DNA from: Escherichia phage HK639
Strand: one strand, 5' to 3'
Length of the DNA stretch: 49,576 bases
Sequence record: NC_016158.1
The notes under the pieces were generated by a model. The model saw only the letters and a program-made list of their open reading frames with translations. It made no database searches and had not been told where the DNA came from. Below, in pieces: positions 26,022 through 34,926 of the stretch; within the stretch, counting starts at the first letter, position 1, and each line of letters opens with the position of its first letter. Made by a program: the position numbers and the translations under genes.

Positions 26022-27185
26022 TTACGCCAGTTTCAAGCCAGCCTGATTTTCTCCTTGTGTCGTATTTGTGTCATGGTTGCCAAAAATGGCATCAATTTTC
26101 CGTGCGTGTTCGCTTAAGTGGTTCGGTGCCAGGTGAGCGTATCGACGTACCATTTCGATGGACTCCCAGCCGCCCATTTCTTGCAGAACTGACAACGGAA
26201 CGCCGGACTGAATTAACCAGCTCGCCCAGGTATGCCGGAGGTCATGAAAACGGAAGTCTTCTATACCCGCTCTTTCCAGTCCAATGCGCCAGGCGACATT
26301 GTCATCCACTCGCATTTTGCGGACAGCCGGAGTGACGGTTTTATCCGGGCGCGTTGATGGCTTCGTGTGAACGAATACCCACCTGGAACTTTTCCCGATC
26401 TGATCCCTTAACACCCTGCATGCGGTATCATTCAGAGCCACGCCGATAGCCTTGCCCGCCTTCGCGTTCTCCGGATTTACCCATGCAACCTTTCTCTGCA
26501 TATCGACCTGCTGCCACTCCAGATCAATGATGTTGGAGCGGCGCAGGCCGGTTGCCAGTGCAAATATCACCACCGGCTTTATCGACTCCGGCATGCAGGA
26601 GATAAGCCGTTCTGCCTCGTCCCTGGTCAGCCATCGGATGCGTTTGCTGATCGGCTTTTTCGTTTTTATAACCGGGGCCGTTTTAATCCAGCCCCAGTCA
26701 TTAGCCGCAGCCTTGAACAGAGATCGCATGAAAGAAAGGTGCTGACTCTTTGTGGCCTGGCTTACCGGTTTCTCAACATACGGAGGCGGTTCCTTCCCCC
26801 GGCGTATAGCCGCGTCCCTGCGCGACTCCCAGACCTGAATATGCTTACGGTTGACCATCTTCGAAACAGCCTCATGAACCTGATCAGCTGTGATGGTTGA
26901 AATATCCCGGCCGGAGAAATGCCGCAGGAAATATTCGATTTTGGTCTTATCGTCATCGAGTGACCGCTTATGCTCCTTCTCACGGAGCCACCTGATGCAA
27001 CATTCCTCAAACGTCCTCGTCGGTAGTTCCCCAATTTTATCCACCCGCCACGCTTCAGCCTTCAGCTTGTCGTGCAGCTCCTGCGCTTGTTTCTTGTCCC
27101 CCGTACCAAGAGATCGTCTAATTCTTTTCCCTGACGGCGTAACGAAATGACAGTGCCAGACGCCGCCTCTGAGGGTGATTGACAT
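26022..27185 (-). CDS. int: tyrosine integrase
   Basis: 387 aa; C-terminal catalytic signature [39 protein letters not shown] (R..H..R..Y). Confidence 0.9.
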
Positions 27186-27706: not shown

Positions 27707-27732
27707 AATAAAAAACCCGCCAGAGCGGGTTT
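27707..27732 (-). terminator. rho-independent terminator (minus strand)
   Basis: Minus strand reads AACCCGC-TCTGGC-GGGTT followed by TTTTTTATT. Confidence 0.55.
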
Positions 27733-27938: not shown

Positions 27939-28062
27939 TGTCACCCCATCAGAAAAGCAGAAATACTGTGTACATCGAATATTATTCCTGCATTCCAGCG
28001 AAACGGCAAAGTACATAATATTGTCTCACCAATAGCCAGCTCATAACTGGCTATCAGTTGCG

Positions 28063-28293
28063 TCAGTCGTCTTCATCTTCCTCCCAGTCCTCGTCGTAAT
28101 ATGGCGAGGCGAGAAGCGGATTGGTTGCGGATAGAACCTCTCCAGCGGCACCCTGCCGCTGAAGTCGACGAAGCGCTTCGTATAGCTCAAAGGCCTCGGT
28201 TCGCTCGTCACCTATATCGAGGGCGCATGCAACCTTGTGCGCCTCGGTGACTAGGGTTGATAGCTGGTTTCGGATGTCATGAATGGTGCTCAT
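28063..28293 (-). CDS. hypothetical acidic small protein
   Basis: ORF 28063..28515; start at ATG 28293 after GAGGAG RBS; 76 aa with acidic tail DEDWEEDEDD. Confidence 0.45.
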   Translation of the reverse strand: MSTIHDIRNQLSTLVTEAHKVACALDIGDERTEAFELYEALRRLQRQGAAGEVLSATNPLLASPYYDEDWEEDEDD

Positions 28294-28301
28294 AGTTCTC
28301 C

Positions 28302-28541
28302 TCATGCCGCGCGCTGGGCACGCAGCTTCTTCAGGTGTTCTGCTGTTTCGATTTCTTCGGCGATCCGCTCGGCCTGTGCTTTGGTCAGCGGTTCGAATTC
28401 GTGCTGAAAGCGGCCCATGCTGGCGATGCAGGTGCGGCCGTTGCGGATGTAGTGGATTACTTCGTGGGTAGCGCGAAGGATTTTGCAGGGCGCGCCGTGG
28501 GGATCGGCGTACCACGTATTAGGCTGGATTATCCTGAACAT
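28302..28541 (-). CDS. hypothetical protein
   Basis: 79 aa ORF in leftward early operon, tightly packed. Confidence 0.45.
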   Translation of the reverse strand: MFRIIQPNTWYADPHGAPCKILRATHEVIHYIRNGRTCIASMGRFQHEFEPLTKAQAERIAEEIETAEHLKKLRAQRAA

Positions 28542-28866
28542 TTGCTGACTCCTTCAAAAGAAGGTAGACGATTGCCACAGCGCGCAGAGGGTTACGGTGA
28601 GTGGAGCTGATGCCCGATTCGTGGGATGCCTGCCAGACGGTCTTACCTGATGGGGTGAGGCCGATCCGGTGCTTCTTCATTGCCGGGAATAGCTCTTCGG
28701 CACGACGCAGCGGGAAATAACCAGTGTTCTGCACCGTGTTAAACCAATTCCACGACAAATTGGCGCCGGTACTTTCATGCGGGTGAATGGTGGCGCTGTA
28801 TTTTGGCTTAAGGAAATAGGCCAGCCTGACGCTGATTTCCCCATCACTCAGCTTGCTGTAATCCAT
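28519..28866 (-). CDS. hypothetical protein
   Basis: ORF 28519..28893; start at Met10 (28866) with GGAGGAGGAG RBS. Confidence 0.45.
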   Translation of the reverse strand: MDYSKLSDGEISVRLAYFLKPKYSATIHPHESTGANLSWNWFNTVQNTGYFPLRRAEELFPAMKKHRIGLTPSGKTVWQASHESGISSTHRNPLRAVAIVYLLLKESANVQDNPA

Positions 28867-29060
28867 CACTCCTCCTCCACATACAGCGACCAACCACTGA
28901 TGGCGTCAACCCATCGCTTTGTTTTGCGCCCAAGGCCATGCGTCCCCATGCGAAGTACTGCCTCTTTCCCGGCAACATCGACAACTTTGTAGAGGAAGCC
29001 CCGCGGCGACTGCCAGATCTCGCCAACTTGGAAGCGCTCACCTTTAAGTACTTTCGACAT
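28866..29060 (-). CDS. hypothetical small protein
   Basis: 64 aa ORF, overlapping stop/start with neighbours. Confidence 0.4.
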   Translation of the reverse strand: MSKVLKGERFQVGEIWQSPRGFLYKVVDVAGKEAVLRMGTHGLGRKTKRWVDAISGWSLYVEEE

Positions 29061-29151
29061 AATCAGTGCTCCCTGAACTGTTCATTGATGCGGCTGACGG
29101 CAAACGCCAGCAAATGCAGGGGCCGCATTAGCGACCCGGTGATTTGTGCTG

Positions 29152-29811
29152 TCATGCGGCCTCCGTTTTGATCACGTCGATCGCGCATCCTGGCAGCAAC
29201 TGAACCGCCGACGTCGGGCACTGGTTGCCCCAATGATCCCACCCCGGCGCACCGCAACGACTGAACAACTCGATGCGCGGTACGTCGCCGTAGAGCAACT
29301 CAAGACGGTGGCGAACCTCCCACGGCTTTTCACTGTGGGCACCGAGCGGGCTGTAAACCACCTGCTTAATCCCGGCGTGCTGTCGCTCAAGCCCAGCGCC
29401 GCGGGTGGCAATCAGCAGGTCTTCGGTATTTGCACGGGTGTGGTTGCCGCCGTTCATGCGCGTCTCGGCGTTAAGCAGGTCGAGGAAGTCGTAAAAGTCG
29501 GTGATTTCACCCTCGGCCAGCGCCTTGTTGATGCGCATCTCGGCGTTCTGATTAAGCTTCACCCAGGTAAAGCCCTTCATCGTGCGAACGGTAAAGCCCC
29601 AGGCCTCGGCAAGTTCGATAGCCTCCTGGTTATGCGTGCCGGTGTACCACATCGCCAGCACCGAGTTTTCGGCGGCAAGCTCCCACACCGGCAGGCGCTT
29701 AATGTCGATTAGCTTCATGGTTGAGTAGTGATCGGCGGCAGCGCCGTTGCTGATGGTGTTGCCGTAAGACCAGGGCGGATCAGCGTAGATAAGAGCGTAT
29801 TTTCCGGTCAT
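29152..29811 (-). CDS. DNA N6-adenine methyltransferase, MT-A70 family
   Basis: 219 aa; N-terminal DPPW motif (LIYADPPWSYGN) characteristic of MT-A70/Dam-like phage methylases. Confidence 0.8.
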   Translation of the reverse strand: MTGKYALIYADPPWSYGNTISNGAAADHYSTMKLIDIKRLPVWELAAENSVLAMWYTGTHNQEAIELAEAWGFTVRTMKGFTWVKLNQNAEMRINKALAEGEITDFYDFLDLLNAETRMNGGNHTRANTEDLLIATRGAGLERQHAGIKQVVYSPLGAHSEKPWEVRHRLELLYGDVPRIELFSRCGAPGWDHWGNQCPTSAVQLLPGCAIDVIKTEAA

Positions 29812-29975
29812 ACATCCTCCCGCTCCGGATCGTTAACATCCCAGCCATTACGCTCAATATTGGTTTGCAGCCGCTTATCTCCTACCTCTTCAATGTTGCG
29901 GCCGGTAATCTCTGCGACCTCAGCGTTTGAGTGTCGCCATAGCAGTGCCAGCTCTTCGAGTGACCATGCTTTCAT
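29809..29975 (-). CDS. hypothetical small protein (55 aa)
   Basis: MKAWSLEELALLWRHSNAEVAEITGRNIEEV...; stop overlaps methylase start (ATGA); below ORF-track cutoff. Confidence 0.35.
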
Positions 29976-30400
29976 AGCACTGACTCCATTTCGTCGATGT
30001 AGAGGCCAGCGGCAATCAGGCGGCTACGGCGGGCGGCACGTTCTATGCACTCCTGCCGTCTGCCTTCTTGTGATTGCTCTATGGCGCGCCGGGTGAATAG
30101 CCGCGATTTACCCTGCGGCGTAATGACCTTTGGCTTGCTGGCCAGGCTAAATTTCCGGTCGCAGATGCCGTCCTCGTTGATCCATTTTTTCGACTCAACG
30201 ATCTGCGCTATCTGTCCGGAGCCGCGGGTAATGCCGTTGGCGACCCGGTTAAATTCGATGAGCGTTACGCCAAACTTCTCGGCGATTTCGCTACCGGTGA
30301 CCGGGCGGCCTCGCGTCTGAATCATCCAGATAACGCGTTCACGGAGGCCGGAGAATTGCCCGGTGCGCCCGGGCCTGCGGTAGAAGGGTGTGCGTTTCAT
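29972..30400 (-). CDS. hypothetical protein, possible HTH
   Basis: 142 aa, basic, in early-left operon. Confidence 0.45.
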   Translation of the reverse strand: MKRTPFYRRPGRTGQFSGLRERVIWMIQTRGRPVTGSEIAEKFGVTLIEFNRVANGITRGSGQIAQIVESKKWINEDGICDRKFSLASKPKVITPQGKSRLFTRRAIEQSQEGRRQECIERAARRSRLIAAGLYIDEMESVL

Positions 30401-30408
30401 GGCTGCAC

Positions 30409-30891
30409 CTACTTGATGATGAGTGAAGGTTTGCCGAGTTTTATTTGCGCGCCAGGTACATCCACGCCAGCTTCTATTTGGTGTTTGATAGCCAATTTGT
30501 CTGGCTTGATGCTCGTCTCGTATTCGACGAATTCAGGAGGAAGTGCGCTGGCATCTGTAATCTCTACTGACTTGGAAGGCGCGCGAACCGTTACCTGATG
30601 AATGCCTGCCTTCAGTGATTTCTTTCCTGCTGTTTCGAGGGAGGTGGCCACATAATCTTTCATGCTCGACACACGGTTTTCTGCGGCTTTTGCGCGCTCT
30701 GCAAGACGCTTGCTTTCTTCTCTCAGCGCCTCGGCATAAGCAGATTCGTTTTTGCAGACAGCAAGGATCTGCTCGACCTTTGCTTCCAGCTCCCACTCAA
30801 TGCCATCAAGGGTGTCGGCTATCATTTCAGGCTCCATGCCTGAATCAGTCAGCTTTGCGAAATCATTGGCGATCTGGTAAAGAGCTGTCAT
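30409..30891 (-). CDS. Gp157-like protein (siphovirus Gp157 family)
   Basis: ORF 30409..30921; start at Met11; coiled-coil-rich; adjacent to RecT as is common for this family. Confidence 0.5.
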   Translation of the reverse strand: MTALYQIANDFAKLTDSGMEPEMIADTLDGIEWELEAKVEQILAVCKNESAYAEALREESKRLAERAKAAENRVSSMKDYVATSLETAGKKSLKAGIHQVTVRAPSKSVEITDASALPPEFVEYETSIKPDKLAIKHQIEAGVDVPGAQIKLGKPSLIIK

Positions 30892-31808
30892 TGCGTAACC
30901 TCTTCGAATTTTGCTTTGCACTTGGCATAGACGGCCTGAACCTCTTGTTGAAGCTGCATTCCGACCGTCATTTTGTAAGCTGCCTGGAAGTGAGTTTTGA
31001 GAGCATGCATGTTTTTCGCCTGCTTCATGTCCTCACATAGTGACTGGATGGTGTTGATAAGTTCCTGTTTTGCGTTTTCTTCTGACTGGATGATTTCGCT
31101 TTCAGGGGTGTATGGCATAACTGGCTCGGTGTATATGCCTTCGCTTTCGTTGAGCACATCGACGGCATTATCCAGTCGGTCGGCACGCGGCCAGTATTTA
31201 TAGGCTCTCTTGACGATCGTCTTCCTGGCCATCTCAGACCAGAAGTTGACCCATGGGCCTTTTGGTGATGTTCCCGCTTTGCTCACTTTCCTGATTTCTT
31301 CTATCTCAGCGAGACTCATCTCTTCAGTGAGATAGTCGCCATCAGCGGTTTTAACTGTGCAGTAGCCACCGATAACGGCACCGCGAGCGTCAGGCGTGGC
31401 AAACGGGTTGTATTTATGAGCTGGCGCCTTATCGAGACCTAATGTCTCGTAGTCGTCGCTTGCATGAACTAGCTTGCACTGACCCCACTTGATGACGCCA
31501 GCCGACTGGGCGATGTGTAGAAGGCCCATATAGCTGATATCGAGGCAGACCATACCGTCGCGCGGAACCAGATAAGCCAGTTTGCTGGCAGGGTTCAGGC
31601 TAATGCCGACAGCTGCAACGTTGATAATCGCGTTCTGGGCGCTGGTGGGGTTGGCAATCGCCGTTTCTGCCAGTTTTTGATTGCGCTGGAATAACTGGAT
31701 GGCGAACTGGCATTCCTTTGCCCAAGTCAGAGACTGGTCGGTAAGGGCTCCGACAAAAAGCGGCTCCTGCTCCTTTACGAACTGAATCAGATCGAAGCTC
31801 ATAATCAC
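30888..31808 (-). CDS. recT: RecT-family single-strand annealing recombinase
   Basis: 306 aa; core AYLVPRDG...GLLHIAQ...KLVHASD resembling RecT/Bet family. Confidence 0.75.
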   Translation of the reverse strand: MIMSFDLIQFVKEQEPLFVGALTDQSLTWAKECQFAIQLFQRNQKLAETAIANPTSAQNAIINVAAVGISLNPASKLAYLVPRDGMVCLDISYMGLLHIAQSAGVIKWGQCKLVHASDDYETLGLDKAPAHKYNPFATPDARGAVIGGYCTVKTADGDYLTEEMSLAEIEEIRKVSKAGTSPKGPWVNFWSEMARKTIVKRAYKYWPRADRLDNAVDVLNESEGIYTEPVMPYTPESEIIQSEENAKQELINTIQSLCEDMKQAKNMHALKTHFQAAYKMTVGMQLQQEVQAVYAKCKAKFEEVTQ

Positions 31809-33177: not shown

Positions 33178-33202
33178 ATAAAAAACCCGCCGGAGCGGGT
33201 TA
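33178..33202 (-). terminator. hairpin with T-run (minus strand) at end of membrane-protein gene
   Basis: Minus strand AACCCGC-TCCGGC-GGGTT followed by TTTTTTAT; overlaps the gene stop. Confidence 0.45.
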
Positions 33203-34760: not shown

Positions 34761-34926
34761 AGGATGACAGCGTTTACCAGAGGGATCGGGTTGTTTACCA
34801 GCTGGCGGGGAATAGACGCCGTTAATGCCAGCATCCCATAATATTCAATTGGTTACGCTGACGTGGTGGTGGTGGTCGAATGGGGATCGGCAGACACAAA
34901 AAACCCGGCGCGGGGCCGGGGAGGGG

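Follow-up and report, generated by a model that had tools for sequence, protein, structure and literature searches.

The methyltransferase gene and its surroundings

The sequence analysed here, hereafter the window, is the 49,576-nucleotide record of Escherichia phage HK639 (NC_016158.1), which as a whole resembles a complete mosaic lambdoid temperate phage. Isolated phages match its structural half only patchily; its early region resembles those of phi80, Enterobacter phage ENT1, and Klebsiella phage KO-TP1. The gene of interest is encoded on the minus strand, between recombination genes and a 387-aa open reading frame (ORF), and the features relevant to its function are as follows.

30888..31808: RecT-like recombination gene
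30409..30921: Gp157/Mu-Gam-like recombination gene
29972..30400, minus strand: gene for a PNB-2-like winged-helix protein of 142 aa (phrog_1680), two genes upstream of the methyltransferase
29808..29975, minus strand: 55-aa ORF that separates the PNB-2-like and methyltransferase genes and shares 4 nt with each
29815..29821, minus strand: Shine-Dalgarno sequence GGGAGGA 5' of the methyltransferase ATG, by sequence reading
29152..29811, minus strand: MT-A70 family (beta-class) N6-adenine methyltransferase gene, 219 aa, by ORF, Pfam, PHROG, structural model, and homologs
29770..29781, minus strand: motif IV, D11-P12-P13-W14, encoded by GATCCGCCCTGG; read from the sequence and aligned with METTL3 D395-PPW398
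29452..29550, minus strand: two-helix insertion, approximately residues 88-120 (model helices 88-99 and 106-120), between the catalytic and SAM-binding halves
29221..29337, minus strand: C-terminal SAM-binding motifs HSEKPWE ... IELFSR ... WGNQ, residues 159-197, by METTL3 alignment
26022..27185, minus strand: 387-aa ORF, putative integrase

We take the last of these as an integrase because of where it lies and by comparison with KO-TP1 and Klebsiella phage ST13-OXA48phi12.5, which share the gene order of the window and have annotated integrases. With the methyltransferase on the minus strand between the RecT-like/Gp157 genes and this putative integrase, the "early-left operon" of an earlier note on this sequence is a fair label for its surroundings.

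The methyltransferase ORF begins at an ATG within an ATGA that overlaps the stop codon of the preceding ORF, and the encoded protein begins MTGKYALIYADPPWSYGN; its coordinates are exactly those of the earlier note, which had recognized a DPPW-bearing MT-A70 adenine methyltransferase. The Pfam profile search that had been named beforehand as a check returned MT-A70 (PF05063) with E = 5.2e-23 and 82.3 bits, against a cut-off of 23.9 bits, and both an alignment with METTL3 and a METTL3-like structural model agree with this assignment. The protein also matches PHROG 359, "DNA methyltransferase" (E = 6e-100), and the PADLOC family MTase_II (E = 3e-52); a search of NCBIfam gave no meaningful match. 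In the AlphaFold2 model (pLDDT 76, pTM 0.74) the protein is predicted to adopt the Rossmann-like fold of MT-A70 enzymes, and the best PDB match found for the model by Foldseek is the catalytic chain of METTL3 (E = 4e-12, TM ~0.6), followed by Tetrahymena MTA1 (E ~1e-9). A sequence search of the PDB retrieved eukaryotic MT-A70 proteins only, with no solved bacterial or phage homolog among them.

The METTL3 alignment spans the DPPW motif as well as the C-terminal block (SHKPDE...IELFGR...GNQ in METTL3 vs. HSEKPWE...IELFSR...WGNQ in the window protein), which in METTL3 lines the SAM pocket and provides SAM contacts. The order of motifs is circularly permuted, with DPPW near the N-terminus and the SAM-binding motifs following at residues 162-197. 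Among 33 homologs, D11, P12, and W14 are invariant, while the second proline is alanine in some close homologs; H159, S160, K162, P163, E181, L182, F183, R185, W194, and G195 are also invariant, and N196 nearly so. Comparison with three homologs gave dN/dS values of 0.036-0.081, which indicates strong purifying selection. The Pfam match splits at the two-helix insertion (approximately residues 88-120), and the motif order of beta-class enzymes makes this element a candidate for target recognition. The DPPW codons GATCCGCCCTGG themselves hold a GATC site, probably by coincidence.

The MT-A70 identity of this gene is therefore real and far beyond chance, and its intact catalytic and SAM-binding core, purifying selection, orphan state, and operon position are established. 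Methyl transfer from SAM to the N6 position of adenine is the predicted activity of its product.

The orphan state agrees with the earlier claim that no restriction enzyme is adjacent. Neighbors of the methyltransferase are small proteins (phrog_24287, phrog_444, DUF4222, phrog_11492, and phrog_1680), and Pfam, PHROGs, and PADLOC detected no nuclease-like or defense gene among them; a type II restriction-modification system was rejected because the same three resources placed no nuclease gene next to the methylase. A search across the window for a second methylase (Dam PF05869, D12, C5, N6_N4, or DpdA-like) also found none. The 55-aa ORF at 29808..29975 matches only the C-terminal third of phrog_11492; it reads MKAWSLEELALLWRHSNAEVAEITGR... 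and looks like a short helix-turn-helix or Myb-like motif.

A promoter scan of the string formed by the PNB-2-like gene, the 55-aa ORF, and the methylase found no convincing internal promoter, only weak 9-of-12 matches. The strongest nearby minus-strand terminator lies downstream of the methylase at 27732..27713, where a strong terminator-like hairpin, AAACCCGCTCTGGCGGGTTT, is followed by a T-run. This hairpin separates the small early-left ORFs from those just upstream of the integrase, and similar hairpins occur at 33184..33201 and 34904..34920.

The window contains 183 GATC sites, which are unclustered and near expectation (observed/expected 0.95 by base composition, 0.72 by a Markov model); this frequency is uninformative, either way, on whether GATC is methylated. 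The tetranucleotide CTAG is strongly depleted (15 sites; observed/expected 0.34 by the Markov model and 0.08 by base composition), as is usual in enterobacterial genomes.

Relatives of the window protein and their targets

The family has been described before, and the gene is ordinary, widespread, and very common in prophages of Enterobacteriaceae; thousands of near-identical copies carry the routine annotation of MT-A70 family methyltransferase. At 93% identity, the window protein matches a cluster of 1,922 Enterobacter hormaechei sequences that carry the annotation DNA methyltransferase, and it shares 74-92% identity with many "MT-A70 family methyltransferase" entries from Klebsiella, Cronobacter, Kosakonia, Citrobacter, and Salmonella. 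More than 599 loci in IMG/VR match it, the best 80 at 92-95% identity, as do 512 isolated phage records. Its homolog in ST13-OXA48phi12.5, named in PMC7556043, is 87% identical.

Several variations were seen among these relatives. DPAW takes the place of DPPW in ST13-OXA48phi12.5 (L004:3995-4651) and in Cronobacter phage phiES15 (L005:3998-4654). A subset of the 89-93% identical homologs (P0009 and P0054, 283-285 aa) bears a C-terminal extension of ~70 aa (…WPAEVEMVF…KLKFHINRMWLEKTP…) that the window protein lacks. KO-TP1, which is the closest phage with annotation, has two extra genes separating the small ORF from MT-A70 (L001:3882-5165), one annotated as a queuine tRNA-ribosyltransferase (DpdA-like) and the other as PDDEXK_5, and a second methylase (phrog_363) follows MT-A70; this arrangement suggests a 7-deazaguanine-type modification in some relatives.

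The nearest relative with an assayed specificity is p32 of Serratia phage vB_SspM_BZS1, which shares 73.7% identity over 95% of the window protein and resembles it in size, in the helical insertion (conserved in p32), and in its catalytic and SAM motifs. Like the HK639 gene, p32 is an orphan placed between early genes and xis/int. The two phages differ in host genus and in what lies upstream, as BZS1 has no PNB-2-like gene but instead a 60-aa ANR-family regulator and a hypothetical protein. When p32 was expressed in a dam- strain of E. coli, plasmid DNA became resistant to MboI and sensitive to DpnI, and HinfI and Hin1II still cut it, as expected for a GATC-specific enzyme (PMC7556043).

Two further members of the bacterial MT-A70 clade point to the same target. 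M.EfaBMDam of Tn1549, a beta2-class enzyme, is mentioned in PMC7556043 as GATC-specific and 41% identical to p32; a Tn1549-like copy from an enterococcus shares 39% identity over 88% with the window protein, and differs in having only 180 aa and in belonging to the conjugation module of a Gram-positive element, with no phage context. This copy, on the Enterococcus faecium plasmid pJEG050 (L169:16629-17171), is flanked by VirB6/TrbL-like and PrgI genes and is probably of the M.EfaBMDam type. Shiga toxin (Stx) phages encode the other, a type represented by M.EcoPA8orf6770P and M.EcoGV that shares 44% identity with the window protein along 218 residues (E = 2e-60); M.EcoGV is referred to as a GATC Dam homolog (PMC10810198; PMC6602927). 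Most of the helical insertion is missing from the Stx type, where the alignment has a gap of 20-25 residues. By homology, the window protein thus falls in a clade whose assayed members all gave GATC.

Other enzymes are comparable in function or fold. The phage Dam family PF05869 (e.g., M.EcoVT2Dam) is a functional analog that in sister phages occupies the slot downstream of the PNB-2-like gene, never together with MT-A70. It is unrelated in sequence, has an NPPY motif, and in some cases forms a fusion with a C5 cytosine methylase (CobraSix gp41); M.EcoVT2 is listed as GATC-specific (PMC6602927). Eukaryotic METTL3-METTL14, which makes m6A in mRNA, and ciliate MTA1c, which makes 6mA in DNA, have the fold, motif order, DPPW, ELFxR, and GNQ of the window protein at only ~20-25% identity. 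Both act with a nucleic-acid-binding partner, a parallel to the PNB-2 idea considered below. However, the eukaryotic enzymes depend on heterodimer formation with a paralog that is catalytically dead, whereas the single phage copy would have to work by itself or as a homodimer.

The PNB-2-like gene and the modification slot

The earlier note had missed a possible partner of the methyltransferase, the PNB-2-like protein, and with it an alternative substrate, ribosomal RNA. In Shigella phage Ss-VASD the Stx-type methylase is directly adjoined by a 143-aa ORF, to which the product of 29972..30400 is 55% identical over its full length. We identify that ORF as PNB-2 (gp6) because the gp7-gp6 terminator printed by Gong et al. 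(PMC10810198) matches exactly just upstream of it (L002:2531-2561). Window and Stx phages have in common an MT-A70 gene preceded in its presumed operon by a PNB-2 family protein, near the int end of a lambdoid prophage. They differ in that the PNB-2 gene directly abuts the methylase in Stx phages, while the 55-aa ORF intervenes in the window, where the PNB-2-like gene and the methylase are on one strand and linked through that ORF by ATGA overlaps.

Biochemical work has been reported for the Stx phage phiPA8. There, M.EcoPA8orf6770P is almost inactive alone, leaving dam- DNA nearly unmethylated in vitro when purified. Together with PNB-2 it purifies as a 1:1 complex, whose preference for RNA over DNA exceeds 13-fold and which favors 16S over 23S rRNA (PMC10810198). 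The methylase gene raises spontaneous induction, and a DPPW-to-APPA mutant does not restore induction or virulence (PMC10810198). Both the rRNA preference and the induction phenotype have been reported in the Stx phage only.

The structural model of the window's PNB-2-like protein predicts a winged helix-turn-helix followed by a long C-terminal helix. Since Foldseek gave only generic winged-helix matches for this model (TFE-alpha and MarR; E>0.02), we assign the protein no specific function. Its family is small, with 55 representative clusters among 1.84 billion proteins, and we found no convincing natural fusion to MT-A70: the proteins of all 55 clusters stand alone, at ~135-145 aa, and a handful of chimeric matches seem to be truncated or mis-called genes. 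The PNB-2-like protein could be a partner of the methyltransferase, a regulator, or a mere positional neighbor.

The association of the two genes was counted from both sides. Anchored on MT-A70, 82 close loci had enough upstream sequence; a PNB-2-like gene lies 0-1650 nt upstream in 62 of them and is missing in the other 20 (~24%). No PNB-2-like gene is present in BZS1 or phiES15. With that gene as the anchor, 72 IMG/VR loci had at least 2.5 kb downstream, and these were searched by domain-level tblastn within 3.5 kb, with identities checked by Pfam. The families found downstream, in loci that are close relatives and not independent events, were the following.

MT-A70: 31 of 72 loci
Dam PF05869: 28 of 72 loci
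N6_N4: 6 of 72 loci
D12: 4 of 72 loci
None of the four families: 3 of 72 loci

Exactly one amino-methyltransferase family is thus present in 69 of the 72 loci, and never two, which argues for selection at this position for DNA modification. In 38 of the 72 the family is one other than MT-A70, a distribution that does not fit a dedicated PNB-2/MT-A70 pair. Additional genes in these loci comprise C5 cytosine methylases (22), a DpdA-like gene (9), and a small class-I methylase-like protein (6). Among annotated phages, Enterobacter phage CobraSix carries a C5+PF05869 fusion in the slot. The position between the PNB-2-like gene and the methylase is itself variable, being taken by the 55-aa ORF in 31/72 loci and by a 50-aa DUF1317 protein in 33/72. 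No recognizable methylase lies downstream of more distant PNB-2-like genes, at 33-40% identity, in phages LASTA, EhrS_59, and PA-1.

The slot corresponds to 28041..30400 (minus strand) of the window, from the PNB-2-like gene to the int-proximal small genes, and to loci L086-L164 of the comparison. The pattern of occupancy is that of a variable DNA-modification site with seemingly interchangeable occupants, and the PNB-2-like gene seems to close the recombination module as its conserved final member, and does not look like an MT-A70-specific subunit.

Function and competing explanations

By analogy with its assayed relatives, we interpret the gene at 29152..29811 as encoding a SAM-dependent N6-adenine methyltransferase of the MT-A70 family, an orphan carried by the phage, with DNA as the likeliest substrate and GATC as the likeliest target, that is, a Dam mimic; we give this reading a probability of roughly 0.68. 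We infer the DNA substrate, the GATC target, dimer formation, and the timing of expression, in the following way. As a presumed part of the leftward transcript of the early recombination genes, and coupled in translation to the two preceding ORFs, the methylase would be expected soon after infection or induction. It probably acts as a homodimer, as other beta-class enzymes work as dimers (PMC7544214), and would keep phage DNA fully methylated at its 183 GATC sites during rapid replication. DNA as the substrate is favored by BZS1, a phage without a PNB-2-like gene in which p32 nevertheless acts on DNA alone. As a counterpoint, the GATC results for both p32 and M.EcoGV come from over-expression, which Gong et al. 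caution may yield artefactual methylase activity (PMC10810198), and 74% identity is no guarantee of the same target.

What the phage would gain is more speculative: shielding from m6A-sensitive GATC-cutting enzymes, evasion of hemimethylated-DNA sensing, or control of its own genes. In enterobacterial hosts Dam already modifies GATC. An additional, phage-encoded enzyme would thus be useful only against m6A-sensitive enzymes that cut GATC, mainly when Dam is limiting, and the expected effect on host range is small. Of the earlier suggestion that the enzyme is an anti-restriction factor affecting host range, a limited shielding against such enzymes can be retained, while a strong effect is doubtful given that the nearest assayed relative methylates GATC. 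The role of phage Dam-like enzymes is poorly understood according to the authors of PMC7556043.

The likeliest alternative is a 16S rRNA methyltransferase made of two proteins, with the window protein as its catalytic subunit; by analogy with phiPA8, this subunit would bind the PNB-2-like protein, methylate 16S rRNA within the 30S subunit, tune translation, and raise spontaneous induction. The 1:1 co-purification, the preference for RNA and 16S rRNA, and the behavior of the APPA mutant all speak for such an enzyme in phiPA8 (PMC10810198), and the window encodes relatives of both of its components (44% and 55% identical) in the same kind of coupled string, with the upstream gene kept in 62 of 82 close MT-A70 loci. 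Nonetheless, we consider it unlikely for HK639: p32, a much closer homolog (74%), methylates GATC DNA in a phage that has no PNB-2 gene; over half of the PNB-2-anchored loci hold an unrelated DNA methylase (Dam PF05869, N6_N4, or D12); distant PNB-2-like genes have no recognizable methylase downstream, and no fusions occur in the 55 clusters; the two genes are not adjacent in the window; and the modified rRNA base was not mapped by Gong et al. (PMC10810198).

We also weighed a DNA adenine methyltransferase of different or relaxed, non-GATC specificity, which would give broad protection from restriction and affect host range. Phage orphan methylases of this kind exist, such as OS31 p25 and ARM81ld p56 (PMC7556043), with M.EcoGII and Hia5 named as further relaxed examples. 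The insertion, a possible DNA contact, differs from that of BZS1 p32 at ~1/3 of positions, and the slot also hosts genes of anti-restriction type (C5 methylases and DpdA-like genes). Against this, all assayed members of the clade gave GATC, p32 left HinfI and Hin1II sites unprotected, and the relaxed enzyme of PMC7556043 is handled in that study as a distinct enzyme and not placed in the MT-A70 family. A relaxed specificity accordingly seems rather improbable.

Equally improbable, in our estimate, is a combination in which the enzyme has two substrates: GATC sites in DNA when acting alone, probably as a homodimer, and 16S rRNA in the 30S subunit when joined by the PNB-2-like protein, with the latter activity tuning prophage induction. 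If true, this would extend the Stx-phage observation to the insertion-bearing clade that is common in prophages of Klebsiella and Enterobacter. A weaker variant is that the PNB-2-like protein may be a general adaptor or regulator for whichever DNA-modification cassette lies downstream. Finally, the gene is very unlikely to be an inactive remnant carried in a mosaic region: DPAW replaces DPPW in some close homologs and the purified Stx-type enzyme alone is nearly inactive in vitro (PMC10810198), but the window copy has the canonical DPPW and all conserved SAM-site residues, dN/dS is 0.04-0.08, and viral contigs contain more than 599 intact, near-identical copies.

With a GATC-specific DNA methyltransferase as the preferred reading, the locus touches on a published disagreement about this family, between Dam-like DNA methylation on the one hand and PNB-2-directed 16S rRNA methylation controlling prophage induction on the other. 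The slot comparison bears on that debate, in that PNB-2 does not look like an MT-A70-specific subunit. HK639 joins a BZS1-type enzyme with a PNB-2 homolog, which would make it convenient for addressing both claims in one background.
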